Below the pieces are notes generated by a model. It was given only the letters and a program-made list of their open reading frames with translations. It searched no databases and had not been told where the DNA came from. From Caldilineaceae bacterium (GTDB taxonomy: Bacteria; Chloroflexota; Anaerolineae; Caldilineales; Caldilineaceae), in contig JAJEDI010000091.1 of assembly GCA_022821585.1 (NCBI GenBank), positions 49,547 to 113,546 on the forward strand: a DNA stretch of 64,000 nt, in the 5' to 3' direction. The position numbers were made by a program, and so were the translations under genes. How positions within the stretch are numbered: the first letter of the stretch is position 1; each line of letters begins with the position of its first letter. Positions 1,903 through 22,589 of this stretch are shown here, piece by piece.

Positions 1903-3402
1903 ATGGCGGTGAAGAGCGTGCCAACACAAGACGAGACCGTAAACGAGAGTGCCATCAGCCTGTTCAGCAACTACGCCTTGGACGGGACCATTTTCGACGA
2001 GATGTTCCAGGAGAACGGCCGGCCGAGGGCATCGTACGAAAAGCTGCTTCAGAGCATTCTTGAACTGCAGGCCAGCGAACTGACCCAACGCCAACAGGCC
2101 GCTGACCTCACCTTCCTGAACCGGGGCATCACCTTCACCGTCTATGGTGAAGACTCGACCATTGAACGAATCTTCCCCTACGACATACTACCCCGAATCA
2201 TCAGCGATCAGGAGTGGAAAAAGATCGAACTCGGCTTGTGCCAGCGCATTCACGCCATCAACCTTTTCCTGCGCGACGCCTATCACGAAGGTCGCATATT
2301 GCAGGAAGGAAAGATCCCCTTCGACCTGATATACAGTTGCGCCAACTACCAGCGAGAAATGCGGGGGGTCAAAGTCGCCAATGATGTGTACACCTCGATA
2401 GTAGGCACCGACCTCGTTCGCCTTCCCAGCGGCGAATTTGCCGTCCTGGAAGACAACCTACGTGTCCCCAGCGGTGTCTCATACATGCTGGCCAATCGTG
2501 AGGTTATGACCCAGATTTTCCCGGGCATGTTCGGCGGCTATGGTATCAAACCCATTGGTCACTACGGCCAGGCCCTGCTGGAGCAGTTACAGACGCTTAC
2601 ACCCAAGGGGCGCGACGCGACCATTGTTCTGCTGACACCAGGGATCTTCAATTCCGCCTACTTTGAACACACTTTTCTTGCCCGGGTCATGGGAATTGAA
2701 CTGGTGGAAGGCGCCGACCTGCTGATCCATGACGGTTTTGTGTATATGCGAACGACCAGCGGGTTGCAGCGCGTAGACGTCATATACCGCCGCATCGACG
2801 ATGAATTCGTCGATCCGCTTCATTTCGAGCCTGACTCCGTCCTGGGCGTTCCCGGGCTCTTCAATGCCTATCGCGCTGGAAACATTACACTTGCCAACGC
2901 TATCGGCACTGGGATTGCGGATGACAAGGCTGTCTATGCGTTCGTTCCTGAGATGATCCGCTACTATTTGGGCGAGGAACCAATCCTTCAGAACATCGAG
3001 ACCTATCTTTGCATGAGAGACGACGAGCGGGCCTATGTTCTCGATAATCTCGACAAGCTGGTCGTCAAAGCCGTTGGCGAATCAGGCGGTTACGGTATGT
3101 TGATCGGCCCTCACAGTACGGCCAAAGAACGCGAGAGTTTTCGCCAGCAGATTCAGGAGAATCCCCGCAACTACATCGCTCAGCCAACCTTGAGCCTGTC
3201 CCGCGCCCCCTGCTACATAGATGGCAACGTTGTTTCACGCCACGTCGACCTGCGGCCCTTCATTCTCTACGGGGGCGAGCAGGAAAACACGGTCATTGTG
3301 CCAGGTGGATTGACTCGCGTGGCTCTGCGGGAAGGATCGCTTGTCGTCAACTCTTCACAGGGCGGGGGCAGTAAAGACACGTGGGTCCTGCAAGAGAATT
3401 GA
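1903..3402 (+). CDS. circularly permuted type-2 ATP-grasp protein (DUF404/DUF407 family amidoligase)
   Basis: 499-aa ORF with family-typical blocks [62 protein letters not shown] and LRPFILYG. It is followed by its two conserved partner genes. Confidence 0.85.
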
Positions 3403-3424
3403 TTTCAATATAGGAAGTGCGCTA

Positions 3425-4402
3425 ATGCTTTCCAGGTCTGCAGACAGTATGTACTGGATCGGACGGTACATGGAGCGGGCGGAAAACACAATCCGCTTGC
3501 TTAGGGTCCGCCTGAATTTTATGGTCGGCCAGGCGGCGCAACATGGGAACGATCGCGGCTGGCAGCAGTTCTTCTCTGCGCTTCGCCAACCCCCTCCGGT
3601 TATGAAGAATGGCGTGGTGGACAGCGCGGCGGCTCTGAGAATGGCCCACGATCTCACTTTTGACGCCGCTAACCAGACTTCGATATCGGGCTGTATCAAT
3701 CTGGCCAGGTCCAATGCGCGAACAGTGCGTTCACAGCTCAGCAGCCAGCTTTGGGAACACATGAACCGGCTCTATTTGCGGCTTCACGCATGGCAAGGGC
3801 ACCAGAATTGGCACGATGAACGCGACATCTTCTTCAGAGAGTTGGAAAGCAGTGTCTCCCTATTTCAGGGACTGGCGCTCTCATCGCTTTTGCACGATGA
3901 AGGCTGGCTTTTCATCCAGATCGGGGGACACTTGGAACGAATATTCTCTGTCTGCTACCTCCTGCAGGCACACTTCCATTACTTTGGCGTACATGGGGGT
4001 GAAGAGTTGGAGACGGTCGATCCTCTCAATGGAATCGGCGTTCTTCGCGCCTGCAACTCATTCGAATCATACTGCCGGGTTTATGACCCGCGGCCCGAAA
4101 CACGGCAGGTAACGTCGTTCCTCTTGCTGAACCCTTACCTTCCAAACTCGGTCCGATTCAATGTCGACCAGATGGCGACCCTTTTGAGGCAGGTGGCCGG
4201 CGCAACCGAAACTCGTCGCGGCGGAGACTTGAATCGGATATCAGGTAAGCTAAAGGCCAATCTGGAGTACAGTCAAATTGAAGATATAGCTGAAGTCGGG
4301 GCGCACGCCTATATCTCTGGCATCATGGACAGTTGTAATCAGATCCACGATGCTCTCTATGACGCCTATTTCAACTATACAATTGAAGAGGAATTCTCTT
4401 AA
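3425..4402 (+). CDS. alpha-E domain protein (DUF403)
   Basis: Internal ATG of ORF 3341..4402, 22 nt after the ATP-grasp stop. The N-terminus MLSRSADSMYWIGRYMERAENTIRLL is the hallmark of alpha-E proteins. Confidence 0.85.
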   Translation: MLSRSADSMYWIGRYMERAENTIRLLRVRLNFMVGQAAQHGNDRGWQQFFSALRQPPPVMKNGVVDSAAALRMAHDLTFDAANQTSISGCINLARSNARTVRSQLSSQLWEHMNRLYLRLHAWQGHQNWHDERDIFFRELESSVSLFQGLALSSLLHDEGWLFIQIGGHLERIFSVCYLLQAHFHYFGVHGGEELETVDPLNGIGVLRACNSFESYCRVYDPRPETRQVTSFLLLNPYLPNSVRFNVDQMATLLRQVAGATETRRGGDLNRISGKLKANLEYSQIEDIAEVGAHAYISGIMDSCNQIHDALYDAYFNYTIEEEFS

Positions 4403-4424
4403 CGGTCCATCTGCGAATCTGCAA

Positions 4425-5396
4425 ATGAAATACTACACAATTCACCACCACACAAGGTATCGCTACGAATCCGACGTCAGTGAAAGCACGATGGAGGTGC
4501 GTATGCAGCCACGCACCGACCGCCAGCAGCGTTGTCTGAATTTCCGGCTGGAAGTGTGGCCCCATGCACAGGTGCTGGCAACGAGCGACTGCATGCAGAA
4601 TGCGATTCACTATTTTGATATCCCCAGGAGCCACTCCGAGTTACTCTTGCGCGCCCAGACGTTGGTCATGGTTCAGGAGTCCGAGCCTTTACCGGAGAGC
4701 CTGGATGCTTCCGAATGGCAGAAGTTGGGAGAGATCGCCGCCACCGGCCAGCACTGGGACTGGCTGACGCCAAGTAGCTTCGCGCGCCCGACCGAGCAGC
4801 TGTCGGACTTCGCGGACGAGATTGGCTTCGGGCAGAATCAGGACCCACTCAGCGCTGTCATTCAGCTGAACGAGAGGGTTCACGACGCCTTAGAGTATAC
4901 ACCGAAGAGTACGGCCGTAGACTCACCAATCGATACAGCTCTGGAAAAACGCCGCGGGGTCTGTCAGGACTATAGTCACATTATGATCGCCCTGCTGCGT
5001 AAGGCAACTATCCCTGCCCGCTATATCAGCGGCTACGTATACCTGGATCCCGAGAGAAAGAAGGAAAAGGACATCTCAGGTGCCTCCCACGCTTGGGTGG
5101 AGGCTTTCCTTCCCACGACCGGATGGCTAGGGTTTGACCCAACCAACAATTCGTTTGTCAGCGACAAACATATCCGCATCGCTGTTGGCAGGGATTACGC
5201 AGATGTGCCGCCGACCAGGGGGACCTATAAGGGCAATGCCCGCAGCGAGTTGACCGTCGGTGTTCACATCTCTGAAACGGAAGATGAGGATATCCCTCAC
5301 GATCTGCTCGACAACGGCCACATTACGACCAGAGAGTTTGTCGAAGCAGAGAGCAGTACGCGACTGCGCCTTGAGCAGGAACAGCAGCAACAATAG
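4425..5396 (+). CDS. transglutaminase-like cysteine peptidase family protein
   Basis: Internal ATG of ORF 4350..5396, 22 nt after the alpha-E stop. It has a Bact_transglu_N-like start (YYTIHHHTRYRYESDVSES). Cys-His-Asp triad candidates are GVCQDYSH, SHAWVEAF and GFDPTN. The C-terminus ends in EQEQQQQ. Confidence 0.85.
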   Translation: MKYYTIHHHTRYRYESDVSESTMEVRMQPRTDRQQRCLNFRLEVWPHAQVLATSDCMQNAIHYFDIPRSHSELLLRAQTLVMVQESEPLPESLDASEWQKLGEIAATGQHWDWLTPSSFARPTEQLSDFADEIGFGQNQDPLSAVIQLNERVHDALEYTPKSTAVDSPIDTALEKRRGVCQDYSHIMIALLRKATIPARYISGYVYLDPERKKEKDISGASHAWVEAFLPTTGWLGFDPTNNSFVSDKHIRIAVGRDYADVPPTRGTYKGNARSELTVGVHISETEDEDIPHDLLDNGHITTREFVEAESSTRLRLEQEQQQQ

Positions 5397-5871: not shown

Positions 5872-7272
5872 TCAATCGGCTGCAACTGGCTCCGGTTGGA
5901 ACTCGGTCAGCAGCCGCATCGGACTGTCCCCTTCGACTTCAAATCGGTCAAATGTAGGAAGATGCTCCACATTTGCCGCCAACATCTCATTTACCATTTC
6001 TCTAATTTCAGCCATCGACAACACTGCCGTGGTCAGGGGATCGTGCAGAATCGCTTGAAAAATCTTACGGGGGTCGCCCTCTGTGATCCCCTCTACTGCC
6101 AGCTCTTCAATCTGTGCGCTCAGGCCAGTCAGCATAGCTACGGACGCCGGTAGCGGCCCGACCTGCACGCTTTCCAATCCCTTCTTGCTTGCCCAAACCG
6201 GAATCTCGACGCAAGCTTCCACGGGCAAATTGTCTACCAGCGGCGTCGCCCCCTCGCCATTGGGCATGTTGCCGTTAAACTGGAAGGGCTCGTCTCCTTC
6301 AAGTGCGTTGATGATGTAGGCGGCGTACTCATATCCACGCGTGAGGTTCAGCGGAGCCGAGTCGTCAAGCCAGGCACGAATCTGCTCTTCCCAGTCATCT
6401 TCCCTGGCCGAATAGTGTCTCAGGACGTAGGCGTATTCGCCTGGATTCCAGCCTGTGCCGTGCGTACAGTACTTTTCGATCAGGTCCGGGCGCTTACGGA
6501 ACCAGGGGTTGTACTCCGAGTGATGGCCGCTAGACTCAGTCGGGTAGTAATCAAGGTGCAGGAACATCTCGTTGCGCACCTGCTCTTCGTTGTATACCTC
6601 GGGCCTCTCTGTTATTGCCTTGCGGATCAGAGGATAGGCGTCCTCGCCGTTCCACTCAAATTTCAGATACCAGGCCATGTGGTTGATACCGGCACAGGTG
6701 TAGGTAATCTCATTGGGGGGAGCCCCGATCCAGCGCGCAAGCATGGTTGCCGTGCCTTGCACACTGTGGCAGAGGCCCGTAGCAACGATCCTGGTCTCCT
6801 TCTGAATTGCCCGGCAGTTGATAACCATTGGATTGGTGTAGTTGAGCATAACCGCATCGGGGCAGAGACGCTCCATATCACGGGCAATTTCGACCATCAC
6901 GGGCGTGGTGCGCATGGCCCGGAATATGCCAGAAGGACCTCGTGTATCGCCGATGTTTGTATCGATTCCGTACTGCTTGGGGATCTCGATGTCTTTTCGC
7001 CAGACATCGGTCTGGCCGACAAGGATGGTAACGATTACATAGTCGGCGCCCTCCAAGGCCTCTTCCCTGCTGAGCGTAGTCTCCACCGTGGCAGGATAAT
7101 GTCCTTCGCGAACGATGCGGCGCACGGCCTTTTCGATATAGCCAAGTTTCCTGGAATCGATGTCCATTAGACAGATTGTGGCGTCCTCAAGAAGTGGAAA
7201 TGTAAGCACGTCTTTGACAAGCTTCCTAGTAAAGCCAAAGCTGCCAGCACCTATGAACGTGACCTTTGTCAA
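5872..7272 (-). CDS. glycoside hydrolase family 4 (NAD/Mn-dependent alpha-glucosidase or alpha-galactosidase)
   Basis: 466 aa with an N-terminal Rossmann motif [12 protein letters not shown], the GH4 Cys-His block [10 protein letters not shown], and NYTNPM and GINHMAW blocks. Confidence 0.85.
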
Positions 7273-7443
7273 TTGAATTCCTCCTATGGAGAGCAGTTCA
7301 TTGGAAAGCGGGTGGCCCGACCAGGGGGCGTGAAGTTGACGGTTTGCGCCAATGTGCGGCGTGCTGTGGGCCTGCAGTTCGGTCAGCTCGATCTATCCCT
7401 TGATCATAGCACTGCGTCTTTCAGATTCCCAACGTCCGAGTTC

Positions 7444-7806
7444 TCAAACTCGCAAAATTCGGCCAAAAAAAGGTACGGGCGAACGACGTGCGCGCAGTGC
7501 ATTGACGATCCCCACTATCCACGCCACCACCACTGCCAGGTAGACGGCGACAACGAGAGCAAAAACATATGCCGCGACAACGCCGCCAAATGGAAGGAGG
7601 GAAATGATCCATGAGAAGAGGATCCAAACGGCAGGAGCCAGGATCAGTGCAGCTACAATCGACAGGGACTGCATAGCGTGATATCGCGAAAAGGCGTCGT
7701 CTTTGCGAAGTAGCAAAATGTAGGCAGGGCCCAGCACCGGCAGCAGATAGGCCAGCAAGGCGGCGTCCACGTTTAGGCCGCGTCTTTCGGTTTCTCTCTC
7801 GGTCAT
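7444..7806 (-). CDS. DUF4870-like small membrane protein
   Basis: 120 aa with 3 predicted TM helices. [18 protein letters not shown] resembles the DUF4870 core. The start overlaps the stop of the upstream ATPase gene by 4 nt (ATGA), implying translational coupling. Confidence 0.55.
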
Positions 7807-8819
7807 TCCGCTTCTCCGATCCCATGTAGGGTCAACTCACGGGCGAAATGACAGCTGGCAAAGTGGCCCGGTTCGATCTCCTCCAGGTGCGGCTCCTCTT
7901 GCGTACACTGTTCCTGCGCGTAAAGGCAACGGGGATGGAATACGCATCCTGACGGCGGATTGGCAGGACTGGGTATATCGCCCTCGAGGATGATCCGATT
8001 CAGCTTAATCTCAGGGTCTGCAGGGGGTATGGCCGAGACCAGTGCTTCAGTATAGGGGTGAAGCGGCCGTCTGAGGAGCCGTTGAGAATCGGCAATCTCC
8101 ACCAGCCGTCCAACGTACATGACGGCAATCCGGTCACACATGTGCTCAACCACAGAGAGGTCATGGGCGATGAACAGGTAGGTCAGCCCCAACTCATCTT
8201 TCAGTTCCTGGAGGAGGTTCAGCACCTGGGCCTGTATCGATACATCCAGAGCCGAGACCGGCTCGTCGGCGATGATCAGCCGCGGCCTGAGTGCCAAGGT
8301 ACGCGCCAGGCCAATCCGCTGCCGCTGGCCTCCGGAGAACTCATGGGGGTATCGACGCATGTAGTTTGGGTCCAGCCCGACTGCGGTCATCAGTTCGGAA
8401 ACGCGGCTCTCCAGAGCGCGTCCGGACGCCTCTTTGTGAATAATGAGCGGTTCGCCAATAAGATCTTTCACCGTCAGTCGCGGATTCAGCGAGCTGAACG
8501 GATCCTGGAAGATCATTCGCATTTCTTTGCGCAGCGGCTTCATTTCCGCCTGTTCGATGTTTGCGATGTCGATGCGCTCGCCTTCGGCCGAGGTGTACCA
8601 GATTTCGCCGGCGGTCGGATCGTAGAGCCTGAGCACGCTGCGCCCGACGGTGGTTTTGCCGGAGCCGCTTTCTCCGACAAGCCCCAACGCTTCGTTGCGG
8701 TTGATCGCGAAGCTGACGCCGTCGACTGCCTTAACATGCCCAATGATTCGTTGCAGGAAGCCCTTGCGAATTGGAAACCATTGCTTCAGACCGTTAACTT
8801 CAAGCAGAGTTTCTTGCAT
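7803..8819 (-). CDS. Opp/Dpp-family ABC transporter ATP-binding protein (OppF/DppF type)
   Basis: Walker [10 protein letters not shown], signature FSGGQRQR, Walker [13 protein letters not shown], and a C-terminal oligopeptide-transporter Cys motif [11 protein letters not shown]. Confidence 0.9.
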
Positions 8820-8833
8820 TTGTCCTCAGTGCT

Positions 8834-10702
8834 CTAGCGGTCGTCGTCGGGCGCGACCTGAACCTGGAAACCCTCCGATGCCAGGAGGATATCAGGATCG
8901 GTCCAACCCTTCCACTCCTGCAGCTGCTGAAATGCCCTGCGAAAAATAAGCTGCACTTCAATGTCGACCCCGTCCGGGACGCCGGCACCATCTCCCTCCG
9001 GCAAGGCAAAACGGAAGCTGCCCATTCTCGAAGAAAGCGCCGGAATGCGCGTGTCTTCCACCAACTCTACCATCCGCCAGTGAGAATACGTCGGTTCTTC
9101 ACCGGTCAGTGTATCGCGCAGGATTTTGGCGTAGGCCTGGCCGGCGAATCCTGCAACGTCGCCTGCCCATTCCGGCAGCACTTCACCGTCTGCCAGGTCC
9201 AGGTCGTTCCCGCTGCCGTCAGTGGCACGTACAATCAGGAGCACCTGGCGCAGCGGAGACCCTGTGGGATAATGATGGCCTGCTCCCGTATTTCTTACTA
9301 CTATGTTAACCACGACCTCGGCGCCGTCGACTTCGGCAGATGCCTCCAGTGAGATAGCGCTTCGCAGGAACAGTTCGTCGCCAGCGCCTGGCATCTGATG
9401 CAAATGGATCTGGTCCAATTCCCGGAACAGTCCTCCTTTTTCCGGGTAGACGAAATAGCTGCGCTGCGACCGTTCGGCCAGCTTGCCCAGGCCAGCCGGC
9501 AACGTGCGCCCGCTGGCTTTTTCCAGCCAGGCAGCCGTCTGGACGAGGCTTTCCATGCGGGATGTGAGTCGCGGCGCCTCGGGCATATGACAGTTCTGGC
9601 AGGTTTGGCCGGCGTCTGGGTCACTGTAGGGGCTTTCGAGCCACTCACCATAGGAATTGTAGATTTCAGTCTCGTCATTGACGCCGAAGTGACAGGCTGC
9701 GCAGAACGCGCTCTCGCGGTGCAGCTGATTGAAACTGTCCTTAGGTCGGGCAACGTCGTCTACCGTCCCCATCAACAGGTCCTCTCCCGTTTTGGGCCTG
9801 TAGAGGGTCAAGGAAAGGATGCCGGGCATCAGTGGATCCGGCAGCACAGTGTCGGTATAGAAGTTCACGGCGCCGATTTTGTGACAGAAGTCACAAGAGA
9901 TCCCTTCGGCGGCCACACCCACGGCTTCATTTGGGCTTACACCGTCGGGCAGCTCGTCGCTGGCGTCGCTTGTCTCCTGCATGTGGCAGCCGTTCCACCC
10001 ACAGGTGTTGTCGGCGTCCAGCTTTGAAGCCATCGGCGTATGGCAGGCTGCGCAGTTGCCGTCCCGCTTTGGGAAGTCCACTTTGAAGCCGGGGCCATAG
10101 TATGGGTCTTCCGGGTCGCGGGTGCGGGGCAGGCCTGTGTCGTAGTTGCTGTTGCGGCTGCGGTTGCCTTCAACGTCGGTACCGTTGTACATGGTCAGAA
10201 AGCGGAAGTTGACTGCCGACTGGCTGTGGGCGTCGCGCAGCCACTCATCATAGGAGGGGTGGCACTCTCCACAGTTGTTGGACGGCTCCCAGTCGTAGAC
10301 GGCGTTATCCACCCGGTTGTGGGGATGCAACTCGATGCCGACGTCATCGTCGCCGCCGCTGGCTTCGGTCCAGCCAAAGATGTATCCCTCTGCCCATGCC
10401 ACCAGAGTCACGCTTTCGGCGGAAGGTACGCCTTCGATCGTAAAGCCGCCGTCCTCCGTAGTATAGGTATGGTTCGCGGTGGTCTGAACCCTTACCAGGG
10501 CGCCGGCGACAGGACCGTCGGTGTCGGTCACAATGCCGCTGATTGACGCGGTGGCCGGTTGGGGCCAGGCGAATACGGCGACCACCGTGCCGAAGCAAAG
10601 CAGGACGAGAAGAAGCAGGAGGAATGCAATGGGGCGGGCCCAGGCTCGAAACACGACTGCAAAAGCATTGCCAACGTACAGAAATGACCTACGCCTGCCC
10701 AA
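8834..10702 (-). CDS. membrane-anchored multihaem c-type cytochrome with a carboxypeptidase-regulatory-like domain
   Basis: 622 aa with an N-terminal signal-anchor helix ([21 protein letters not shown]) and a CarboxypepD_reg-like segment ([28 protein letters not shown]). There are five CxxCH motifs (CGECH, CAACH, CDFCH, CAACH, CQNCH) plus CGWNGCH. A C-terminal beta-rich domain carries GAGHHYPTG. Confidence 0.75.
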
Positions 10703-10722: not shown

Positions 10723-11868
10723 TCAGACGATCGAATACGGGTCGGCCGCATCACGCAGACCGTCGCCCAGAAAGTTGAATCCCAGCACGGCCACGATTAT
10801 GAAAATAACTGGCGTCATGATCCAGGTATGTGTGCCGAGCGTCTGCAAGTTCTGTGCGTCGCGCATCAGGAATCCCCAGCTCACGAGAGGTTCCTGAATT
10901 CCGATGCCCAAAAAGCTGAGGAACGCCTCAGCCAATATGATTTGAGGGATTGTTAGGGTGAGGACGACGATTATATGGCTGATGGAGTTGGGGAAGAGGT
11001 GCAGAAAGATGATGCGAGCGTCGGACGCGCCCATCTCTTTGGCGGCCAGAATGAAGTCGGTCTCGCGGAAAGCCAGCACTTTACCCCGCACTTCGCGCGC
11101 GAGCAGTGTCCATGATAGCAGCGAAAAGATGATAACCATGATGATAAAGACCTGCAGCGAATCCCACGTTCTCGGAATGATTGCGGCCAGGGCCAGCCAG
11201 AGTGGGAGCTGAGGGAACGAGGCAACAAACTCCACAAACCGCTGAATGACGTTGTCGATCACGCCGCCATAGTAGCCGGATACGATGCCTACGACGGCGC
11301 CGACTACTATGCTGACAATGGTCGCGAACAGGCTGAGCGACAGTGAGATGCGGCCCGCGGTGCAAGCCCGGCCCCAGAGGTCTCTGCCCTGCTTCTCAGT
11401 ACCCAGCAGGTGAATCTTTCCCCCCTCGGCCACACCGAAGAGATGATAGCGCGTGGAGATCAGGCCTAAGATCTTCCACTCCCAGCTCTTCACAAAGAAC
11501 TGAATGTCATAACGTTGTTCGGGGTCCTCTTCCCAGAGAGGCTCAAAAGTCTTGGGATTGATGGTCACGACCTGATTGTAGACAAAAGGACGAAGGTGAA
11601 GCTTGCCATCCGCGTCAATAAGGCGGATCTTGGTTGGGGGAATAAAGCTGTCCTGTAGATTTGCGTCGGTTGGGTCGACCGGGGCAAAGAATTCGGCGAA
11701 GATGGCCAGAATAATAAGCGAAAGTACCATGAGCCCGCCGGCGATGGCGGGACGGCTCTTTCTGAACCGCTGCCAGACGAGCTGGAAGTAGGACTCGTGT
11801 TGCTCTTCGTCCTGGCCGTCCGAAAAAAGTCCGGTCACGGATCCCAATTCATTTTGCGAAGTCGCCAT
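10723..11868 (-). CDS. Opp/Dpp-family ABC transporter permease (OppC/DppC type)
   Basis: 381 aa and polytopic, with the OppC-type N-terminal domain ([23 protein letters not shown]) and a BPD_transp_1 core ([22 protein letters not shown]). Confidence 0.9.
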
Positions 11869-12005: not shown

Positions 12006-13034
12006 CTACGAAAACCGCACCCGCGGATCCAGTACTACCAGGGCAATATCGGCGATCAGATTGCCCGCCACCAGCAGGACGCCGTAAATCAGCAGGCAGC
12101 TCGCAGAGATGTAGATGTCCTCATTGCGAAGAGAAGTCAGAAGCAAGGTACCTATCGTCGGCAGACCCATTACGATTGAGGCCTGCAGTTCCCCCTGCAG
12201 CATATATGGAAGAGAAGTCCCCTGGTACATGATGATCGGGTGCAGGGCATTCGGCACCGCGTGTCGGCGCATGACCTGGCCTTCGGTCAGCCCTTTGGAA
12301 CGAGCGGTCGTAACATACTGTGCGTTCAGCTCGTCCAGCATATTGCCTCGCATGACGCGCATATTGCGGGCCACGCCGCCTAACCCGGCGATTACCACCA
12401 CAGGCCAGATATGTTGGAGCAAGTCCAACAGTTTTGCCCAAGTCCGACTGATCTCTTCCAGGCTGCCGAATGCCCATGGCACCACCACGAATTGTGGGGA
12501 ATGAAATGCCGTCACATGCTCTTGTTCCAATGTAAAAACCAGAAAGAACATGATCGCCAGTGCAATCCAGAATCGCGGCAATGCGGACAGAACGAAGGCG
12601 GCGAAAGCGGCCAAGTTGTCCGCCAGCGAATACTGCCGCGGTGCAACCAGGATGCCAACAACGATCCCAACTACGGTCGAAGTCAGATGTGCCAGAACCG
12701 CCAGCAACAACGTGCGCGGAAACCGCTCCGCGATCAGTTCACCCACGTCCCGCTTGTAAGCGAAAGAGAAGCCGAAGCTCCCCTTCGTCACCATGTCCCG
12801 TATCCAAACAAGGAACTGCAGCGGCAACGGCTTATCCAAGCCGTATCGTTGGCGAAACAGCTCGGCCTGCGCCTCTGCTTCCGATTCGGTTGCGCCGCCT
12901 TGCTCGATGAGAAACGACTTGTAGCCGTCAGCATAGTCACCTGGCGGCAACTGAATCACAATGAAGCTGACCAGGGCGATGCCAAGGACGACTGCAATAG
13001 AAACGCCAACGCGGCGAGCGATGTAGCCTATCAT
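12006..13034 (-). CDS. Opp/Dpp-family ABC transporter permease (OppB/DppB type)
   Basis: Internal ATG of ORF 12006..13109 gives the canonical start MIGYIARRVGVSIAVVLGIALVSFIVIQLPPGD. The core contains TARSKGLTEGQVMRRHAVPNAL. Confidence 0.9.
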   Translation of the reverse strand: MIGYIARRVGVSIAVVLGIALVSFIVIQLPPGDYADGYKSFLIEQGGATESEAEAQAELFRQRYGLDKPLPLQFLVWIRDMVTKGSFGFSFAYKRDVGELIAERFPRTLLLAVLAHLTSTVVGIVVGILVAPRQYSLADNLAAFAAFVLSALPRFWIALAIMFFLVFTLEQEHVTAFHSPQFVVVPWAFGSLEEISRTWAKLLDLLQHIWPVVVIAGLGGVARNMRVMRGNMLDELNAQYVTTARSKGLTEGQVMRRHAVPNALHPIIMYQGTSLPYMLQGELQASIVMGLPTIGTLLLTSLRNEDIYISASCLLIYGVLLVAGNLIADIALVVLDPRVRFS

Positions 13035-13141
13035 CAGATGAAAACAAGAAAACAGTCTGGAAATCTTGCACAGAGAGTGTGAAGAAAGAGGAGTGAGATT
13101 CCCTCTCACTCCTCTTTCAACTTATCTCTCTACTTGGAAAT

Positions 13142-15322
13142 CTATTCGCTATCGTATGTCGGAATTACACCCGGGCGAAGTTGCTCAATCTGTTCCTCCG
13201 GGGCAACCCAGACCTGCTCGGCCATCACGTTGTCCCAGGTCCACTGGTACATGAACACGGGCATCCCCGCCGGCACGTTGTTGAAGCGCTTTGCGGCTGC
13301 GAGCCCGTAGCGGCCGACAAATACACCGACAAAGTAAACGTTTTCGGTCACGATGCGGTTGTATTCGGCCATCTGCTGTATGCGCACTTCCGTATCCGGT
13401 TCGGCGCAGAAGGCAGTGACTATATCGATCAGATCCTGCTCGAAGTCGAGAAGCTGACGCGGTTCTGCGCCTTCACGATGGAAGCTATATTCCTTTGTAA
13501 CAGGTCCGAGGTCGGTGCAGCGGGTGAATGGAACAGCATAGACTTGACTGTCGCGATCAACCCTCAACTCCCATTCGCCGGCCTCGATCAGCTCTCGGCG
13601 GGCTGCGCTGTTAAGCGGGCGAACGTTGACCTGTACGCCAAGGTCGCCAAGCAGAGTCACTGCAGCGTCACCAACGGTCTGCGTCTCTTCGGCATCTTCG
13701 CTAGTAATGAGCGCCACGACGAGGTTTTCGCCGCTGGCCAGCCGATCGGTCGGCCAGTTCAGAATGCCGTCACCATCCGTGTCCTCGAATCCCAAGTCGG
13801 CAAGCAGTGCAGCAGAAGCTTCCGGCCTGTTGTTGAAATAGGCCACCGTACTGCGGTCGAAATAGGAAGACCCGGGGAACAGCCCACCGGCCCAACCGCG
13901 CAGGAACGGTCCGCGCAGGATGGACTGCGAGATTCCCTCTCGGTCCATGGCAAAGCTGACGGCCTTGCGGAACCGCACGTCACGGAACAGTTCGCGTAGG
14001 GCAGCGTCCCGGTCATCCTTCACACCCAGAGAAGCGGAAAGGTTCAGTTTGATGCTGAAGCCAAGCGTCTCCGGGCCCCATTCGACGTAGAAGTGGGCAT
14101 CATCCTCTTCGGCCCGCTTCAGGGTTTCGATAAAGGTACTGGGATTTTCCAGATTGGAGTGATCCGCAGTTCCAGCCAACGTACTCAGAGTGCGGCCTAC
14201 GCCCGATGGCCCTTTTTCGAATACGACCTCGTCCAGATAGGGCAACTGGTTCCCCGCTTCGTCCACGCCCCAGAAGTAGGGGTTTCTACGCAGAATCATC
14301 AGTTCGTCGGTAATGTACTCTACCGGGACGAACGGGCCCAGGACGACGGGAATCTGGTTAGGCGGCATCGAAGCCTCGAAGTCAACATAGTCCATATCAC
14401 TGTTGTACTTCGGATGGAGTGGCTTCAGGTAATGGGCAGGTGAAATGTGAAAGTCGCTCTCGTCCATCTGGAATAGGGACTGGACTGGGAAGGGTACCGG
14501 GAAGACGAACTTGAATGTGTAGTCGTCGATCACTTCAAGCTGCGTCAATTCGCCGTTAAACGTCCACGCTGACGCGCCCTTCGGTGACTGCACATTGGAG
14601 TCGATTATCATATCTTCCCACGTAAACAGGATATCCTCAGTAGTTAGCGGATGGCCGTCCGACCACCTTGCTCCTTCGAGCAGATTCATGGTCAGCTCGT
14701 GGCCGTCTTCGCTCCATTCCCAGCTCTTGGCCACGAATGGAAGCGGCTCCAGCGAATCGGAGCGTCGGAAGATCGGGCCTGATTTGAGCAGGGAAGCGAA
14801 AGCAGCCGCCTCAATCCCAAACCAGCCTGCACTCTGCCCGGCACCGCGGTTGAAGCCTTCGGTCGGGCAGGCCGAGAAGTCGCGCCAGACACCGCCATAG
14901 ACGCCGATTCCTTCGGCCATGCCGGTCGCGAGCACGACACGCGGTTCAACTGGAAGACGCTCTTCCACCGGCGGTAACTCACCCGCGGCGACAAGCTCGT
15001 TGATCCAGTCCGGTTCATTGTAAGAATCCAGCGCCTTGTAAGTGACAATTTGGTCAAGCGGCAGCTTTTGGACCGGTCGGCTGCCCACGATCAGCTGGGG
15101 CTCCGGATACTCGCTGGGAGAGAGATCGACCTCCATCATCTCTTCTTTTGCTTCACTGTCTTCAGCTTTCGCCTCGTCGGCAGCAGGAGCTGCCTCTTCC
15201 TGGGACGTGTCCGCAGCCGCCGGTTCCGGCTCATCGCCGCCGCCACAGGCAGTGATGATCATGGAGAACACGATCAGTAGAGACAGCACCATTGAAATCG
15301 ACTTCCTTCTTTTCAGTGACAT
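13142..15322 (-). CDS. ABC transporter substrate-binding lipoprotein, family 5 (Opp/Dpp/Nik-like), large 726-aa form
   Basis: Signal peptide plus lipobox (LIVFSMIITAC), then an acidic low-complexity linker (DEPEPAAADTSQEEAAPAADEAKAEDSEAKEE), then an SBP_bac_5-like body. Confidence 0.9.
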   Translation of the reverse strand: MSLKRRKSISMVLSLLIVFSMIITACGGGDEPEPAAADTSQEEAAPAADEAKAEDSEAKEEMMEVDLSPSEYPEPQLIVGSRPVQKLPLDQIVTYKALDSYNEPDWINELVAAGELPPVEERLPVEPRVVLATGMAEGIGVYGGVWRDFSACPTEGFNRGAGQSAGWFGIEAAAFASLLKSGPIFRRSDSLEPLPFVAKSWEWSEDGHELTMNLLEGARWSDGHPLTTEDILFTWEDMIIDSNVQSPKGASAWTFNGELTQLEVIDDYTFKFVFPVPFPVQSLFQMDESDFHISPAHYLKPLHPKYNSDMDYVDFEASMPPNQIPVVLGPFVPVEYITDELMILRRNPYFWGVDEAGNQLPYLDEVVFEKGPSGVGRTLSTLAGTADHSNLENPSTFIETLKRAEEDDAHFYVEWGPETLGFSIKLNLSASLGVKDDRDAALRELFRDVRFRKAVSFAMDREGISQSILRGPFLRGWAGGLFPGSSYFDRSTVAYFNNRPEASAALLADLGFEDTDGDGILNWPTDRLASGENLVVALITSEDAEETQTVGDAAVTLLGDLGVQVNVRPLNSAARRELIEAGEWELRVDRDSQVYAVPFTRCTDLGPVTKEYSFHREGAEPRQLLDFEQDLIDIVTAFCAEPDTEVRIQQMAEYNRIVTENVYFVGVFVGRYGLAAAKRFNNVPAGMPVFMYQWTWDNVMAEQVWVAPEEQIEQLRPGVIPTYDSE

Positions 15323-15491: not shown

Positions 15492-16538
15492 TCAGTCATG
15501 CAACCAGCAGGCCGCAGAATGGCCCGGCTCGTGTTCCTTGAACTCGGGAGACTGCTCCCAGCAGATCTGCATCGCTTCAGGACAGCGTTCGGCGAATGCA
15601 CATCCTCGTATGTCATCCATTGGGCTTGGCACCATTCCCGTAATTGGCACCAGGCGATTGTTCTCTTTCCGCCCCAGTACCGGCACCGAGTTGAGCAATC
15701 CTATCGTATAAGGATGCTTCGGCCTATGAAAAATGTCGTATACAGGTGCGTACTCTACAACACGCCCCATGTACATTACCGCCACATGGTCCGCCATTTG
15801 CGATACGACGCCCAGGTTATGGGTGATCAGCACGATCGCAGAATCGAAGTCATCCTGCAGTTCCCGCATCAGATCCAGGATCTGCGCTTGTACTGTCACG
15901 TCCAGCGCGGTGGTCGGTTCATCAGCAATCAAGATTGATGGATTGCAGCTCAGTGCCAGTGCGATCATGACGCGCTGCCGCATGCCGCCGCTAAGCTGAT
16001 GCGGGTATTCGCTGACGCGCCGGTCGGGATCAGCGATGTGTACCCTATTCAACATCTCTTCGGCACGTTCCATCGCTGCCGGCCGCGACATGTTCTGGTG
16101 CAACAGTACCGACTCTGAAATCTGCCGTCCGACAGGATGAAGCGGATTCAGGGATGTCATTGGCTCCTGAAAGATCATGGCGATTTCGGCGCCGCGGATG
16201 TCGCGCAGCTGGCGGCTGCGAGGATCCAGTTTGACAATATCGACCGTTGCTCCGTCTTTGCGGTGAAGAAGAATCTCCCCTTCTACGATCTTTCCCGGGG
16301 GGGACTGAATGAGCCGCATTACCGAACGAAAGGTAACGCTCTTCCCGCAACCGCTCTCTCCGACAACGCCCAGGGTCTTTCGGCGCCCGACTGCGACATC
16401 TACGCCATCAACCGCCTTCACCACACCCCGCTCGAGAAAGAAGTAGGTCTTCAAGCCTCGAATTTCGAGGATCGTGTCGTTCGCGCCACTATTCTCATTC
16501 GTCGCCGCACGCGCCAGCGCCTGCTGACTAAGAGTCAT
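15492..16538 (-). CDS. Opp/Dpp-family ABC transporter ATP-binding protein (OppD/DppD type)
   Basis: Internal ATG of ORF 15492..16670 (MTLSQQALARA..ILEIRGLKTYF). Walker A GESGCGKSV, signature LSGGMRQRV, Walker B ILIADEPTTALD, and C-terminal GCAFAERC. Confidence 0.85.
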   Translation of the reverse strand: MTLSQQALARAATNENSGANDTILEIRGLKTYFFLERGVVKAVDGVDVAVGRRKTLGVVGESGCGKSVTFRSVMRLIQSPPGKIVEGEILLHRKDGATVDIVKLDPRSRQLRDIRGAEIAMIFQEPMTSLNPLHPVGRQISESVLLHQNMSRPAAMERAEEMLNRVHIADPDRRVSEYPHQLSGGMRQRVMIALALSCNPSILIADEPTTALDVTVQAQILDLMRELQDDFDSAIVLITHNLGVVSQMADHVAVMYMGRVVEYAPVYDIFHRPKHPYTIGLLNSVPVLGRKENNRLVPITGMVPSPMDDIRGCAFAERCPEAMQICWEQSPEFKEHEPGHSAACWLHD

Positions 16539-16721
16539 AGAAATGCTCTTGCCTACTGGCATAAGGCCAGGGGCAATACAGTGAGAGTGATTCGCGAGTG
16601 AGGCAGGTCCGGCCCGAGTCAGAAACGAATGGGGGGAGGTTTCGCCTTGCTGCCAGATGAAACCGAGCACGACACGCCGACCAGACGGCTTCAGCCGCGT
16701 ACTCAGGCTGAAAGCGGGGAA

Positions 16722-16750
16722 ATTGTAGCGATTTCAGCAAGTCTTGTCAA
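16722..16750 (-). promoter_or_regulatory. near-consensus sigma70-type promoter for the Opp-like operon
   Basis: Minus strand reads TTGACA-17 nt-TACAAT (-35 at 16745-16750, -10 at 16722-16727), about 175 nt upstream of the first ATPase start at 16538. Confidence 0.5.
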
Positions 16751-17281: not shown

Positions 17282-18280
17282 TCAGTAGGCTTCCGGTCCT
17301 TGAAGCGATTTGCTGCGCCACCATATGTTAGGGAGCCGCCTCAGTTTGCCCCAGACATTTATGTGGGCACGGCGGGAAAAGACATCATAGTCGTGTGCCT
17401 CAATGTCAGCGAGAATGGCTCGGTAGAGTTCGGCAGCTGCACCAATGGCGAAGCGGCCGTCCGCGTGCAGAAGCCCTATGCCCGGCCACGCCTCTTCGTA
17501 GAGTTGACGCGTTCGTCCAATCTGAAAACGCATGAAGGCACGCCAGCGGTCATCAACCTTCCCAGCCGAAATGTCCACCTCATCGAGATCGAATCGACCC
17601 AGGTCCTCGAGAGGAAGATAGAGGCGCCCGTCCTCCCAGTCCTCGCCAACGTCTCTCAAGATATTTGTCAGCTGCAACGCCACGCCTAGTTTCAAGGCAT
17701 ATGGAATCGCTTCAACGCCGGAAAAGCCGATTATGTGCATGCTCATCAGCCCTACCGTTGCCGCCACACCGTAGCAGTAGCTGGTCAAGTCCGCGAACGT
17801 TTTGTAGCGTTTTTCTGTGATGTCGCGAGCAACGCCCTGGATGAGTTGCTCGGCATAGCGGGGCGGGATGCCGTACTGCCGGCGGGCGTCCGACCACGCC
17901 AAGGCAACAGGATCTTCAGTGTCAGCAGACTGCGAGAGGGAACGCGCCTTCCAAGTAGCGAGGGCGTCGCGCACTGCGTCCGGATCGCGCCTCCCAATGG
18001 GTGGTCTGTCAACTATGTCATCACTCTTGCGGCAAAAGGCATAGAGGGCACGTACTGACCGCCTCTTGTCCCGCGGGAGAAGTCGAGAGGCCGTAAAGAA
18101 GGAGCGGCTGTTTACGGCGGTGACCGCCTCGCAAAAGTCATAGGCCAGATCCAGCGTCTTCCTGTCCTCGACCTTGGGGCGTGGTTGCGGACCATAGACC
18201 TGCCCAGCTTCGTACGCAAGTGAAAGCAGTGGACGCTCCCAATCGCGAATCTTCAGAGTCATCAGAGCGCCTTTGCTCAT
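17282..18280 (-). CDS. crtB: phytoene synthase (squalene/phytoene synthase family)
   Basis: 332 aa with the two Asp-rich motifs of head-to-head trans-isoprenyl synthases ([12 protein letters not shown] and [20 protein letters not shown]). A GGGGAG SD lies upstream. The genomic context is carotenoid genes. Confidence 0.85.
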
Positions 18281-18330
18281 CTATTCTCCCCTTCAACGAC
18301 TCTTCCGTAAATCACGGCTTCTGCAGTTCC

Positions 18331-18359
18331 AAAATACTTCATTCGGTGCGTTGCGTCAA
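18331..18359 (-). promoter_or_regulatory. candidate crtB promoter
   Basis: Minus strand reads TTGACG-17 nt-TATTTT, about 45-50 nt upstream of the crtB ATG at 18280. Confidence 0.35.
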
Positions 18360-18363
18360 GGAG

Positions 18364-18381
18364 TCTCCCGAAACCGGGAGA
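18364..18381. promoter_or_regulatory. 7-4-7 inverted repeat abutting the -35 of the candidate crtB promoter (possible operator)
   Basis: TCTCCCG-AAAC-CGGGAGA begins 5 bp beyond the -35 hexamer. No U-tract follows on either strand, so it is not a terminator. Confidence 0.3.
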
Positions 18382-19399
18382 TTCCCTGCCAGAACTGCAC
18401 TGCAATACATTCGAAAGTATCGTCTAACTATGCCAAATTTTTTCGAAAACGGGTCGGTCAGTAGAATAGAATGCCATTTCTCGGCGCAAATCGCAGCCTG
18501 CTCGATTCAGTGTTTAGTTGCTGAAAGAGGAGTTGCGCCGTCAGGGAACGCAAAATGGACCTCCTATAGACGAAAGGAAAAAGGCTCTATCTGCAAATTC
18601 GCGCGCCCTTTCACTGATACAGCTTAGCATCGCGCACTGCACAGCATAGACCACAACATTTTTTTGCGCAACTCCTGCCAAGGTTAGAGCATATGTTGTT
18701 CATATTTTGTACAGCTAACAGTTTCGACCTCTTGTACTTCACAACTTTACTTGCTGAGAATTCAGAAACGGCCAGACTCTGAGCGTAGAGACAGAATCGT
18801 CTCACCCGTTCTGTGAGCCACTTCCCAGCGGGGTAGGCTAGTCTCATGAATTAGAGTCAGTCAGGTTTCCCGAACTGGGGGTTGCAGCTAGCGAATAGTG
18901 ATTTGGCGGTCAAATCCGTGCAAAGGCAAAGGAGAGCCTCTTTTGGGTGAGTAGGTGGTTGCAAACTGCCGAGTGATGACCTTTCCCCAGACTACCGAGT
19001 GATTCGAATACCTGGCAATGCGCTTTGTAGAAGACACGGCTTTGAGGCGAGACATTTTTTCTCTGTCTGTTCTCCGAGTCAATGAGCAGACGTACAAGGT
19101 TGCTTCGACGAGACATCTGTGACATGGTCAGCCTTCCCGAAAGCCCAGGAGGTCCCGAATCAGACTGCCACCACCCAACGGAACCTGGGAAATACGCCCA
19201 TAGACAGAAGTTGGCAAAGTAGGCTATCATTGAGTTGAACCTCTTTGTTTTGTTGCCTCGGTCTTTTCGGTCGTTTAGGAAGTCCCAGACATTCGAACTG
19301 GGGGACCTTTACCGCGGCTTTCTGCCTAAAGGCTGCCCCAGTTGCCTTCTCCCCTACCAGCATGTCCCATGGCGATCAGTATTCAAGTCACTTGCTAGT

Positions 19400-19428
19400 T
19401 TGTAAGTTGGGAAAAAAGTGCGTAGTAT
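19400..19428 (+). promoter_or_regulatory. candidate promoter of the MerR/B12 regulator-carotenoid operon
   Basis: TTGTAA-17 nt-TAGTAT, about 70 nt upstream of the ATG at 19501. Confidence 0.45.
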
Positions 19429-19472
19429 ATCATAGTTTTCTCGTCAGACTCCGCGTTGGCAAGGGACGCGGC

Positions 19473-19509
19473 GTACACGTACGAAGGAGTACTTGTACAA
19501 ATGAGTACT
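19473..19509 (+). repeat. GTAC-cored tandem 16-bp repeats spanning the SD and start codon of the regulator gene (candidate operator)
   Basis: GTACACGTACGAAGGA / GTACTTGTACAAATGA / GTAC.. The first two units share 12 of 16 positions. Five GTAC cores fall within 37 bp at spacings of 6, 10, 6 and 10. The region includes AGTACT-N10-AGTACT and a central TGTACA. Confidence 0.4.
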
Positions 19510-20868
19510 GAAACGCCCACATTCAATCTGAAGGCCGTAGTACGAGAAACGGGCATCAAGGCGGAAACGTTGCGGGCATGGGAGCGCCGGTATGGGATTC
19601 CCCGACCGGCCAGGAGTCCGGGCGGTCACCGCATTTACTCGCGAAGAGATGTAGACACCCTACACTGGTTGAATCGGCGTCGCTTGGAAGGTCTCAGCAT
19701 AAGCCGCGCAGCCGAGCGCTGGCAGACGTTGGAGAGCGAGGGGCGAGACCCACTCCACGAGCAGGGAATAGCCACCGACCTGCCATTCTATGGAAGCCGC
19801 CTGTCAGAAATCTCGCAGTTCAAGGTAGGCGAAGCCGAAGACATTGATGACCAGATCAGTACTGCTTGCACCTATTGGACGGCTGCCTGCGTTGCCTTTG
19901 ATGAGTCTGAGGCGCAGAGAATTCTCTCCCAAGCTTTCGCCCTGTTCCCTGTCGAAACAGTTTGCCTTCATGTGCTCTGCGAGGGACTGCGAAAACTGGG
20001 AGGAGACTGGCACGCCGGTAAACTGACCGCTCAGCAGGTCTCCTTTGCCGCAGCCCAGGCCATGCAGCGGGTCAAAGTGCTGCTGGGCGCTTCTCCACCG
20101 CCGAACAGACCCGGCCTGGTGTTGATGGCCTGCCCACCAGGAGAGCTTCACACTTTCGGCTTGGCGCTATTGCAGCTCATTTTGAAGAGGCGGGGTTTTG
20201 GGACTGTCTTCCTGGGCGAGAACCTCTCTCTTGGCGATATGGAAGAAACGCTGCATAGAGTTCAGCCCGACCTCGTCGTACTCGTTTCCCAGCAACTTCG
20301 AACTGTCGGCAGTCTCTTGGACATGTCTGAACTGATTGTCGGGCAGAGGGTACCTGTCGCATTCGGAGGGCGTATTTTCAATCTCTCTGAGACTATCCGG
20401 AAAGGCGTGCCTGGGGATTTCCTCGGCCACGATTTACTTCAAGCGGGGATCAGAGCCGAAGGTCTTCTCGTGAACCCGGGTCACCTGAACGGGCTCTATC
20501 CGCCCAGCAACGGTTACCAAGACCTGATCGGCCGATATCGGGCCAGTTTGCATATGATCTCGGCTCAAGTCTTGAGCGGGAAAAATGGGATTCCTCCGGA
20601 TTGGGCAATTTTGGGAAGGCCTTCTTTCAGCCTAACCAGCTCCATGATGTCGGCGCTGCGTTTTGGTGACCTTGGCCTGATCTCTCTCGAAGCAGAGTGG
20701 GTTTACACTTTCCTTGAGTCCCGAGGCCTGCCATTCGGAATGCTGGAAGAGTACCTGAACCTGGGTATGTCCGTTGTCCAATCTGTCCTTGGCAGTGAGG
20801 GCGACCCCATTGTCGGTATGTTGGAAACTCTGCGAAGAGACGTGCGCCAGTGCTACGAACAGACCTAG
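19501..20868 (+). CDS. MerR-family transcriptional regulator with a cobalamin-binding domain (CarH/LitR-like) and an extra C-terminal domain
   Basis: The ATG at 19501 lies within ORF 19456..20868. MerR HTH (FNLKAVVRETGIKAETLRAWERRYGIPRPARSPGGHRIYSRRDVDTLHWL). B12-binding-2-like helical bundle (GGDWHAGKLTAQQVSFAAAQ). Rossmann B12 motif ExHxxG (PPGELHTFGLALL). About 130 further residues have no recognisable domain. Confidence 0.8.
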   Translation: MSTETPTFNLKAVVRETGIKAETLRAWERRYGIPRPARSPGGHRIYSRRDVDTLHWLNRRRLEGLSISRAAERWQTLESEGRDPLHEQGIATDLPFYGSRLSEISQFKVGEAEDIDDQISTACTYWTAACVAFDESEAQRILSQAFALFPVETVCLHVLCEGLRKLGGDWHAGKLTAQQVSFAAAQAMQRVKVLLGASPPPNRPGLVLMACPPGELHTFGLALLQLILKRRGFGTVFLGENLSLGDMEETLHRVQPDLVVLVSQQLRTVGSLLDMSELIVGQRVPVAFGGRIFNLSETIRKGVPGDFLGHDLLQAGIRAEGLLVNPGHLNGLYPPSNGYQDLIGRYRASLHMISAQVLSGKNGIPPDWAILGRPSFSLTSSMMSALRFGDLGLISLEAEWVYTFLESRGLPFGMLEEYLNLGMSVVQSVLGSEGDPIVGMLETLRRDVRQCYEQT

Positions 20869-20956
20869 ACCACGTAGGCATTCCTCTGGACTCGGTCCGG
20901 TCCAATTGTGGAAGGCTAGGCCCCAGTTTGCGTTACTTAAGGGCTGCCAGGCAAGG

Positions 20957-22527: not shown

Positions 22528-22589
22528 TTTTCCGTCTCCCAGCTCTCAGGCGCAATGTTTTTGCAGCTTGTCACGGCAGGAGCGTCCGA

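Follow-up and report, generated by a model that had tools for sequence, protein, structure and literature searches.

In the window analysed here (64,000 nucleotides of contig JAJEDI010000091.1 from the Caldilineaceae bacterium assembly GCA_022821585.1, positions 49,547 to 113,546), a gene for a predicted six-haem c-type cytochrome lies inside the operon of an ATP-binding cassette (ABC) importer that most likely takes up alpha-galactosides. ABC importers are built from one binding protein plus a pair each of permeases and ATPases, and to our knowledge redox proteins are not among their parts. The six-haem cytochromes form a dedicated clade whose genes were found within the same importer operon in all loci located, and we tentatively propose that the cytochrome is a redox partner or gate of this importer.

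The cytochrome is encoded on the minus strand by an open reading frame (ORF) at positions 8834-10702, which starts with TTG, has a Shine-Dalgarno-like GGAGAG just upstream and yields a protein of 622 amino acids. As claimed in the original prediction, which was made from the sequence of this stretch, the protein contains five CxxCH motifs and one Cx4CH motif, namely C144GECH, C217AACH, C234GWNGCH, C270DFCH, C334AACH and C368QNCH, and these hold 12 of its 13 cysteines. When the cytochrome sequence was shuffled 20,000 times, three or more CxxCH motifs were never reached (0/20,000), compared with the five observed. Furthermore, all six haem motifs are invariant in an alignment of 51 orthologues. 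Combined, these observations identify the ORF as a genuine multihaem c-type cytochrome with six predicted haems.

The domains that had been proposed for the protein were also recovered. The carboxypeptidase-regulatory-like domain matches PF13620 (CarboxypepD_reg) in Pfam at residues 53-107 with an E-value of 2e-10, and its structural matches in Foldseek are the N-terminal extension of SusC and the transthyretin-like domains of carboxypeptidases. In the AlphaFold2 model, the signal-anchor helix corresponds to residues 11-44, and the C-terminal beta domain, which contains G475-H-H-Y-P-T-G, spans approximately residues 440-615 with a pLDDT mostly above 80. The haem region was modelled with low confidence (pLDDT <50), which is expected because the model was built without haem. 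Given this hydrophobic helix, and given that the cytochrome homologues bear signal peptides or lipoboxes, the protein is predicted to be exported, extracytoplasmic and membrane-anchored. A Tat signal, hinted at by the N-terminal RRRSF, was considered and rejected, as RRRSF is not conserved in the homologues; moreover, Tat export of a folded protein does not fit with haem attachment, which takes place outside the cytoplasm. A Pfam scan of window ORFs up to approximately 47 kb revealed no cytochrome c maturation genes.

The profile search and structure prediction suggested in the original prediction both point to the same relative. The penta-haem cytochrome c552 of Thermochromatium tepidum (5ze8) is the best solved relative in the profile search (E=1.3e-8) and the top Foldseek match (E=1.2e-10, target-normalised TM-score 0.50, approximately 16% identity over the aligned columns). 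The NCBIfam ExtKL model NF040886 matches residues 141-376 with E=1.1e-16, at 60.4 bits against a cut-off of 250. The cytochrome is thus modelled with a c552/ExtKL-type fold consisting of a helical haem cap and an Ig-like stem. Within the stem, the loop G-H-x-x-P-T-x-x-P-x-R (residues 475-485) is invariant, and the window sequence G-H-H-x-P-T-G-x-P-x-R aligns with P-H-A-M-P-T-G-A-P-F-R of c552, whereby His476 aligns with a histidine of c552. Membership of the MtrC/OmcA decahaem cytochromes was rejected (PF22113 reached 29.0 bits against 30 with no single stretch passing, and TIGR03507 reached 15.3 against 209), and NrfA, cytochrome c3 and cytochrome c7 gave only sub-threshold, motif-level matches.

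A search of approximately 5.8 billion proteins yielded 1,721 relatives of the cytochrome. Only a few of these are named, as 'hypothetical' or 'carboxypeptidase regulatory-like domain-containing', and because of these names annotation-based surveys of multihaem cytochromes would miss such proteins. When one genome per species was scanned, more than 400 species contained a relative; the best 80 were kept, and the window operon proteins were located in these genomes by tblastn. The cytochrome gene lay inside the same importer operon in 50 of the best 80 species genomes, in the window and in three metagenome contigs, whose distant homologues (47-49% identity) were all found in this operon (3/3). 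The survey of homologues for linkage to importers, which the original prediction had proposed as a check, therefore gave 54 of 54 for the orthologous six-haem clade, compared with 0 of 30 for the five-haem-type paralogues.

Most of the linked genomes bear the label Caldilineaceae, Anaerolineae, Aggregatilineales or Thermoflexales, with a few bins labelled otherwise, and the orders represented by label are Caldilineales, Anaerolineales, Aggregatilineales and Thermoflexales. They derive from sponge symbionts, sludge and sediment organisms and some cultured strains. Anaerolinea thermolimosa IMO-1 (L033), a cultured strain, is among them, as is a metagenome-assembled genome that bears the name Litorilinea aerophila (L022). 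Across the linked loci, identity to the window is approximately 70% for the ATPases, 62-80% for permease C and 46-69% for the binding protein, while the cytochrome, at 39-49%, stays below the transporter subunits (46-80%). Gene order varies, and in a few lineages the cytochrome gene follows the second ATPase gene, still within the operon. One variant from the Phototrophicaceae (L029) has the binding protein, both permeases and the cytochrome, with no recognisable ATPase or DUF4870 genes nearby.

The number of haem motifs separates the two groups completely: all 54 linked cytochromes have five CxxCH and one Cx4CH, whereas the 30 unlinked ones have four or five CxxCH and no Cx4CH. In a neighbour-joining tree, 51 linked sequences form one clade and 29 unlinked sequences form another. 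The sixth motif, CxWxGCH, sits in an insertion not present in the unlinked clade. His433, found in 46 of 51 linked cytochromes and replaced by Phe, Leu or Val in all unlinked ones, may be an axial ligand of the added haem. In both clades His159, His435, His476, Met373 and Met437 are invariant, and since these shared residues supply enough candidate ligands for the five common haems, no haem is obviously free for catalysis. Among 80 family members, no conserved Cys was found outside the haem motifs. When 1.84 billion cluster representatives were searched exhaustively with a profile, 7,023 relatives were returned at E≤1e-3, 2,034 at ≤1e-10 and 470 at ≤1e-30. Only 7 of the best 150 representatives contain CxWxGCH, and most of the full-length ones have five CxxCH; because the motif is so rare, the operon-linked clade is best seen as a narrow offshoot of a large five-haem family. 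The six-haem subfamily is monophyletic and occurs almost only in Chloroflexota-labelled genomes.

The importer genes encode a binding protein (SBP_bac_5), two permeases (BPD_transp_1, in one case with OppC_N) and two ATPases (ABC_tran and oligo_HPY domains). All are on the minus strand, and since all five score above the Pfam cut-offs, the system belongs to family 5 (Opp/Dpp/Nik-type). Read along the minus strand, a promoter-like site is followed by the genes for the OppD-type ATPase, the binding protein, permease B, permease C, the cytochrome, the OppF-type ATPase, a DUF4870 protein and a GH4 enzyme. The cytochrome gene is separated by 20 bp from the stop of permease C and by 14 bp from the start of the OppF-like ATPase, just as the original prediction had described. 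Co-transcription had been called very likely there; we regard it as likely, because the one near-consensus promoter seen precedes the first ATPase gene, a convincing terminator was not found within the operon and the gaps are only 14-20 bp. No internal terminator or promoter signal that would give the cytochrome a separate transcript rose above the shuffle background. The true start of the OppD-type ATPase is probably downstream of the listed GTG. An Rfam scan of the window gave no riboswitch or structured RNA for the operon; its sole match was a tRNA gene at 54906-54978 on the minus strand.

Both ATPases end in a Cx6Cx6C...C motif, which reads GCAFAERCPEAMQIC...AAC in the OppF-type ATPase (7803-8819) and ends in ...ASC in the OppD-type ATPase (15492-16670). 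Motifs of this kind bind a 4Fe-4S cluster in some Opp/Dpp ATPases, such as the mycobacterial OppD. If the motifs here hold such a cluster, the importer would gain a redox-sensitive element on the cytoplasmic side too.

The cargo can be approached through the binding protein, a lipoprotein of 726 amino acids with an ITAC lipobox and a long acidic linker. It matches 6epy_A over its full length (residues 72-718 against 14-664) with 516 bits and an E-value of 1.8e-153, and a profile built from 15 such binding proteins reaches 6epy with E=4.7e-282. In contrast, binders of chitin oligosaccharides, peptides, nickel and haem score only approximately 50-110 bits in the binding-protein profile search; peptide, nickel and haem cargo were rejected on this ground. 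Plasmid-borne relatives of the binding protein are rhizobial, with the protein on pSymB of S. meliloti showing 38.8% identity over 90% of the query. The genes flanking the operon are in line with this assignment. The window GH4 gene passes the NCBIfam alpha-galactosidase cut-off, GH4 genes adjoin the operon in 37 of the 54 linked loci, often in two or three copies, and the linked loci include a LacI regulator in 15 of 54 and, in 6 of 54, a hybrid regulator composed of sugar-binding, histidine kinase, receiver and AraC domains.

For comparison, the homologous locus of Rhizobium leguminosarum contains an AraC regulator, an alpha-galactosidase, the binding protein, two permeases, a fused ATPase and another alpha-galactosidase, with neither a cytochrome nor a DUF4870 gene. 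It matches the agpT-melA-agp arrangement, which serves alpha-galactoside use (PMC4254191), and the Agrobacterium system imports melibiose, raffinose, stachyose and galactinol (PMC6683767). By sequence, the Chloroflexota importer is assigned to the AgpA/MelB alpha-galactoside type. Because the binding protein matches 6epy and GH4 alpha-galactosidases and sugar regulators flank the operon, its cargo is most likely an alpha-galactoside, a neutral sugar without an obvious reducible group. The idea that a metal chelate, haem or an oxidised ligand would be reductively processed before uptake did not hold up against a 6epy/AgpA relative accompanied by GH4 and LacI or sugar-sensor genes, and the cytochrome is unlikely to reduce a metal or haem substrate.

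A second accessory gene, missing from the original prediction, follows the OppF-type ATPase and overlaps its stop by 4 nt. It encodes a DUF4870 protein of 120 amino acids and three helices, whose match to PF09685 is marginal (25.3 against a cut-off of 25 bits). Conserved H..Q, W and P..G positions were found in 28 orthologues, and a profile search located the gene in 46 of 53 linked loci versus 0 of 30 unlinked ones; among the seven misses, three loci have too little downstream sequence. An ORF of 134 amino acids in another frame (7421-7825) was rejected as the downstream gene and is probably spurious, as its product is rich in Arg and Cys, lacks a hydrophobic segment and has no Pfam match. 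An ORF caller that prefers length would choose this wrong ORF over the one at 7444-7806. DUF4870 proteins are distant homologues of the chloroplast translocase protein Tic20, named HOTT, and are uncharacterised apart from the MamF-like magnetosome proteins, which have been implicated in organelle protein assembly and are now read as protein-localisation factors rather than iron handlers (PMC11628618).

The binding protein itself carries a conserved residue that may connect it to redox chemistry. Cys152 (nt 14867-14869, motif FSACPT) is present in 41 of the 41 Chloroflexota binding proteins that cover the position, out of 43 taken from cytochrome-containing operons, while the position is occupied by Gly in the Rhizobium homologue and in Agrobacterium 6epy. 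Cys152 has no conserved partner Cys. The other cysteines of the binding protein are either the lipobox Cys or members of the covarying pairs 380/386 (28/43) and 602/639 (18/43). An invariant free thiol outside the cell is unusual, and Cys152 could be a contact to the cytochrome. It offers a new lead for redox control of transport, the second possibility raised in the original prediction.

We tentatively favour the cytochrome as a redox partner or gate of the importer over its being a sugar-induced electron outlet, because the dedicated clade stays between the transporter subunit genes in all 54 loci despite internal rearrangement, and because the binding protein has an invariant free Cys. We would place the cytochrome at the outer side of the cytoplasmic membrane, next to the translocator and to the binding protein with its lipid anchor. 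The cytochrome would carry electrons rather than catalyse a reaction, since ligand candidates exist for all six haems and no extra conserved Cys or selenocysteine (Sec) is present. In this position, it may couple or gate the capture and uptake of the sugar according to the extracytoplasmic redox state, with Cys152 of the binding protein as the most concrete candidate contact, and the DUF4870 protein may help to assemble or anchor the accessory module. Haem-thiol chemistry has a precedent in the cap-plus-stem fold, namely in MccSep. A stricter version, which we consider unlikely, would make the cytochrome a stoichiometric extracytoplasmic subunit that reads or sets the redox state of the Cys152 thiol or otherwise passes electrons at the outer face of the transporter, so that sugar capture and uptake are coupled to electron flow or gated by it, and would make the DUF4870 protein its assembly factor. 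If true, this would be the first redox-gated, cytochrome-equipped ABC importer and the first DUF4870 function outside magnetosomes.

Several points weigh against a redox partnership. Cys152 may simply line the ligand pocket or contact the ligand, and its invariance is that of binding proteins taken from cytochrome-containing operons. Likewise, linkage was traced in one direction, from the cytochrome to the transporter. The membrane anchor differs among the cytochrome homologues, being a helix in some and a lipobox in others, which disfavours a tight intramembrane complex. Haems are one-electron carriers and poor direct reductants of disulfides, and as the family lacks a conserved non-motif Cys, an MccSep-like S-S chemistry would need another mechanism. 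Finally, no conserved electron donor or acceptor gene was found at the linked loci examined.

It is also possible, if more doubtful, that the cytochrome is a surface protein merely co-regulated with the importer, without physical or functional contact, and serves as an electron outlet induced by the sugar. Electrons from alpha-galactoside catabolism would then be delivered to Fe(III), humic substances, partner cells or a terminal oxidase. The presence of six haem motifs close together, each with ligand candidates, suggests a wire rather than an enzyme, and the fold relatives include ExtKL from the extracellular electron transfer cluster of Geobacter and, as proposed, the archaeal nanowire protein AvECN. 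Many of the hosts are labelled Anaerolineae, whose cultured members ferment, and the cytochrome diverges faster than the transporter subunits, as exposed carriers tend to do. However, the gene is also conserved in Caldilineaceae with carotenoid genes and a B12-dependent MerR-type regulator, which hints at an aerobic, light-exposed life, and the neighbourhood has no conserved gene for a quinol dehydrogenase or another respiratory function. Moreover, co-regulation does not account for one six-haem clade that is confined to this operon (54/54) and never found elsewhere.

The unlinked paralogues have a genomic partner of their own. In 18 of the 30 unlinked loci, the paralogue lies directly downstream (once upstream) of the gene for a BNR/sortilin-Vps10 beta-propeller surface protein of 815-1,276 amino acids, a second conserved gene pair. 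Such large proteins clustered with the unlinked cytochromes and were rejected as paralogous cytochromes, since they are beta-propellers without haem motifs; the clustering may be due to the CarboxypepD_reg domain shared by one of the three propellers scanned against Pfam. Another of the three is lectin-like, with a DUF1080/'3-keto-disaccharide hydrolase' match at 26.5 bits, just under the cut-off of 26.8, and the third has a type IX secretion sorting tail. On both branches, the partner of the cytochrome is thus an extracytoplasmic protein that probably binds carbohydrate. A gene for a tungsten-type aldehyde:ferredoxin oxidoreductase lies within a few kb of the unlinked paralogue in five loci from different lineages (L044, L052, L065, L077 and L078). 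In the giant proteins P0127 (1,505 amino acids), P0130 (1,757) and P0221 (1,532), the cytochrome module forms the C-terminal part, and the ORF around the match in L081 is similarly long (1,791 amino acids).

This pairing bears on a further explanation, which was the first idea of the original prediction and which we consider improbable: that the cytochrome processes a substrate or cofactor before uptake by reducing or oxidising something that the importer or GH4 needs, such as an oxidised glycoside (e.g. a 3-keto-glycoside), a redox-active aglycone or a metal like Mn or Fe. Both branches adjoin carbohydrate-related proteins outside the cytoplasm, an alpha-galactoside binder in one case and the propellers, one of them DUF1080-like below the cut-off, in the other. 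Periplasmic glycoside 3-dehydrogenases work with a cytochrome c subunit, and GH4 enzymes depend on NAD+ and Mn2+ as cofactors. On the other side, no dehydrogenase or flavoprotein gene is conserved at the locus, the binding protein is closely related, within one structural family, to a plain alpha-galactoside binder, and no haem seems to be without an axial ligand, unlike a usual catalytic site. We know of no multihaem c-type cytochrome that acts on sugars. DUF4870 does include MamF/MmsF of the iron-mineral organelle in magnetotactic bacteria, but MamF-like proteins are now seen as localisation factors and not as iron handlers (PMC11628618). Least probable of all is a structural or passenger role, as a non-redox scaffold or spacer or as a hard-to-lose ancestral insertion of unrelated function: although modules like the CarboxypepD_reg and Ig-like domains typically serve as spacers or in adhesion and the anchor type is variable, the six haem motifs and candidate ligands are invariant across linked genomes of several labelled orders, the gene was kept even where it has shifted within the operon, and a six-haem protein is costly to make.

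If the cytochrome is coupled to the importer as a redox partner, this would be a new way to tie nutrient uptake to redox state or electron disposal, and it would provide a first function for this branch of the c552/ExtKL family and for the DUF4870 proteins. If the two are only co-regulated, filamentous Chloroflexota would induce an electron carrier at their surface along with a specific sugar pathway, which bears on the role of this major, poorly studied phylum in anaerobic digesters and sediments.

Outside the operon, the window contains several other gene groups. A plus-strand triad at 1903-5396, which encodes a circularly permuted ATP-grasp protein, an Alpha-E domain protein and a transglutaminase-like protein, adjoins the operon in Caldilineaceae loci and is also present in L029. 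A DUF899/AhpC-TSA thioredoxin-fold protein is encoded at 572-1339 on the plus strand and occurs near the operon only in close Caldilineaceae relatives. On the other side, a carotenoid cluster (17282-23390) encodes phytoene synthase, a lycopene cyclase-like protein and a carotenoid synthesis protein, and a MerR-type regulator with B12-binding domains (19456-20868) resembles the light-responsive CarH. Because of this cluster and the CarH-like regulator, the window organism is suggested to be light-exposed and probably aerobic.

Table 1. Coordinates of the operon and cytochrome features in the window, and loci of the propeller-paired paralogues.
Feature	Position or loci	Strand	Evidence
Promoter-like TTGACA-17-TACAAT before the first operon gene, 11/12 matches	16722-16750	-	Sequence scan
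OppD-type ABC ATPase, C-terminal Cx6Cx6C...C motif	15492-16670	-	Pfam
Lipoprotein substrate-binding protein of AgpA/MelB type, 726 aa, lipobox ITAC, acidic linker, Cys152	13142-15322	-	Pfam, profile
Permease B, BPD_transp_1 with BPD_transp_1_N	12006-13109	-	Pfam
Permease C, OppC_N and BPD_transp_1	10723-11868	-	Pfam
Predicted six-haem c-type cytochrome: N-terminal anchor, CarboxypepD_reg, haem cap, Ig-like stem	8834-10702	-	ORF, Pfam, profile, model
CarboxypepD_reg-like beta-sandwich (aa 53-107)	10382-10546	-	PF13620 (E=2e-10), structural matches
Haem-binding region (aa 141-376), six haem motifs	9575-10282	-	Motifs, NCBIfam, alignment
CGWNGCH (aa 234-240), sixth haem motif, clade-specific	9983-10003	-	Insertion, not in unlinked paralogues
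C-terminal Ig-like beta-sandwich (aa 440-615)	8858-9385	-	Profile, model, Foldseek, alignment
OppF-type ABC ATPase, C-terminal Cx6Cx6C...C motif	7803-8819	-	Pfam
DUF4870 (Tic20-like, 'HOTT') three-helix membrane protein, 120 aa	7444-7806	-	PF09685, PMC11628618
GH4 alpha-galactosidase, MelA type	5872-7272	-	NCBIfam PRK15076, 494.9 bits vs cut-off 486
BNR/sortilin-paired unlinked loci	L044, L047, L050, L052, L056, L057, L059, L060, L062, L063, L065, L067-L069, L072, L076, L078, L082		

Among known systems, the importer most closely resembles the AgpABCD/Mel importer of rhizobia and Agrobacterium (6epy). The likeness covers the full-length binding protein including its N-terminal extension, the family-5 subunits and the presence of GH4 alpha-galactosidase genes alongside under a sugar regulator. 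In contrast, the proteobacterial operon examined has no cytochrome or DUF4870 gene and its two ATPases are fused in one gene, and Gly in the proteobacterial binding protein takes the position of the Chloroflexota Cys152. The Chloroflexota binding protein is lipid-anchored via a long acidic linker. The DUF4870 protein shares with the MamF-like/HOTT proteins the PF09685 match, the three-helix layout and a conserved H-x-x-Q loop, and no link of these proteins to ABC importers or cytochromes has been reported.

The cytochrome shares with c552 (5ze8) the N-terminal helical haem domain, the C-terminal Ig-like beta-sandwich and the H-x-x-P-T-G-x-P-x-R loop. However, c552 has five haems, is soluble and lacks both the CarboxypepD_reg domain and a membrane anchor; it has no assigned function, and a role in sulfur metabolism has been suggested. 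ExtKL is identical to MccSep (GSU2937-2936), the multihaem selenoprotein polysulfide reductase of Geobacter sulfurreducens, which consists of a five-haem cap and an Ig-like stem and whose catalysis needs a haem-ligating Cys and a Sec in the stem, the features that define its family. The cap-plus-Ig-like-stem architecture is the same, and in MccSep the Ig-like loop reaches the haem domain; MccSep differs in that it forms a soluble tetramer in the periplasm and is known mainly from Desulfobacterota and Nitrospirota. Membership of the MccSep family was rejected, because the score is far below the cut-off (60.4 versus 250 bits) and the window cytochrome family, having no conserved non-motif Cys, offers no conserved counterpart of the defining Cys and Sec. 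SoxAX and TsdA provide a functional analogy only, with no sequence relationship: they are c-type cytochromes that make or break a bond on a Cys sulfur, and SoxAX does so on the carrier-protein Cys of SoxYZ, that is, on a partner protein. These enzymes use a His/Cys-ligated haem, of which there is no sign in the window cytochrome.

The component parts of the locus are of known kinds, while their combination and the six-haem clade are new; no description of the pairing of cytochrome and importer in Chloroflexota was found in the literature. The only published parallel found for a multihaem cytochrome and ABC genes in one operon is that of Geobacterales, in which some operons combine genes for an MtrA homologue and MtrB with ABC transporter genes. 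Its authors call the arrangement, which is uncharacterised, surprising and suggest a metal or a redox-active metabolite as the cargo. The Geobacterales case differs in that a deca-haem, MtrA-type cytochrome is combined with an outer-membrane porin in another phylum with another cell envelope, and in that the cargo suggested there is not a sugar.

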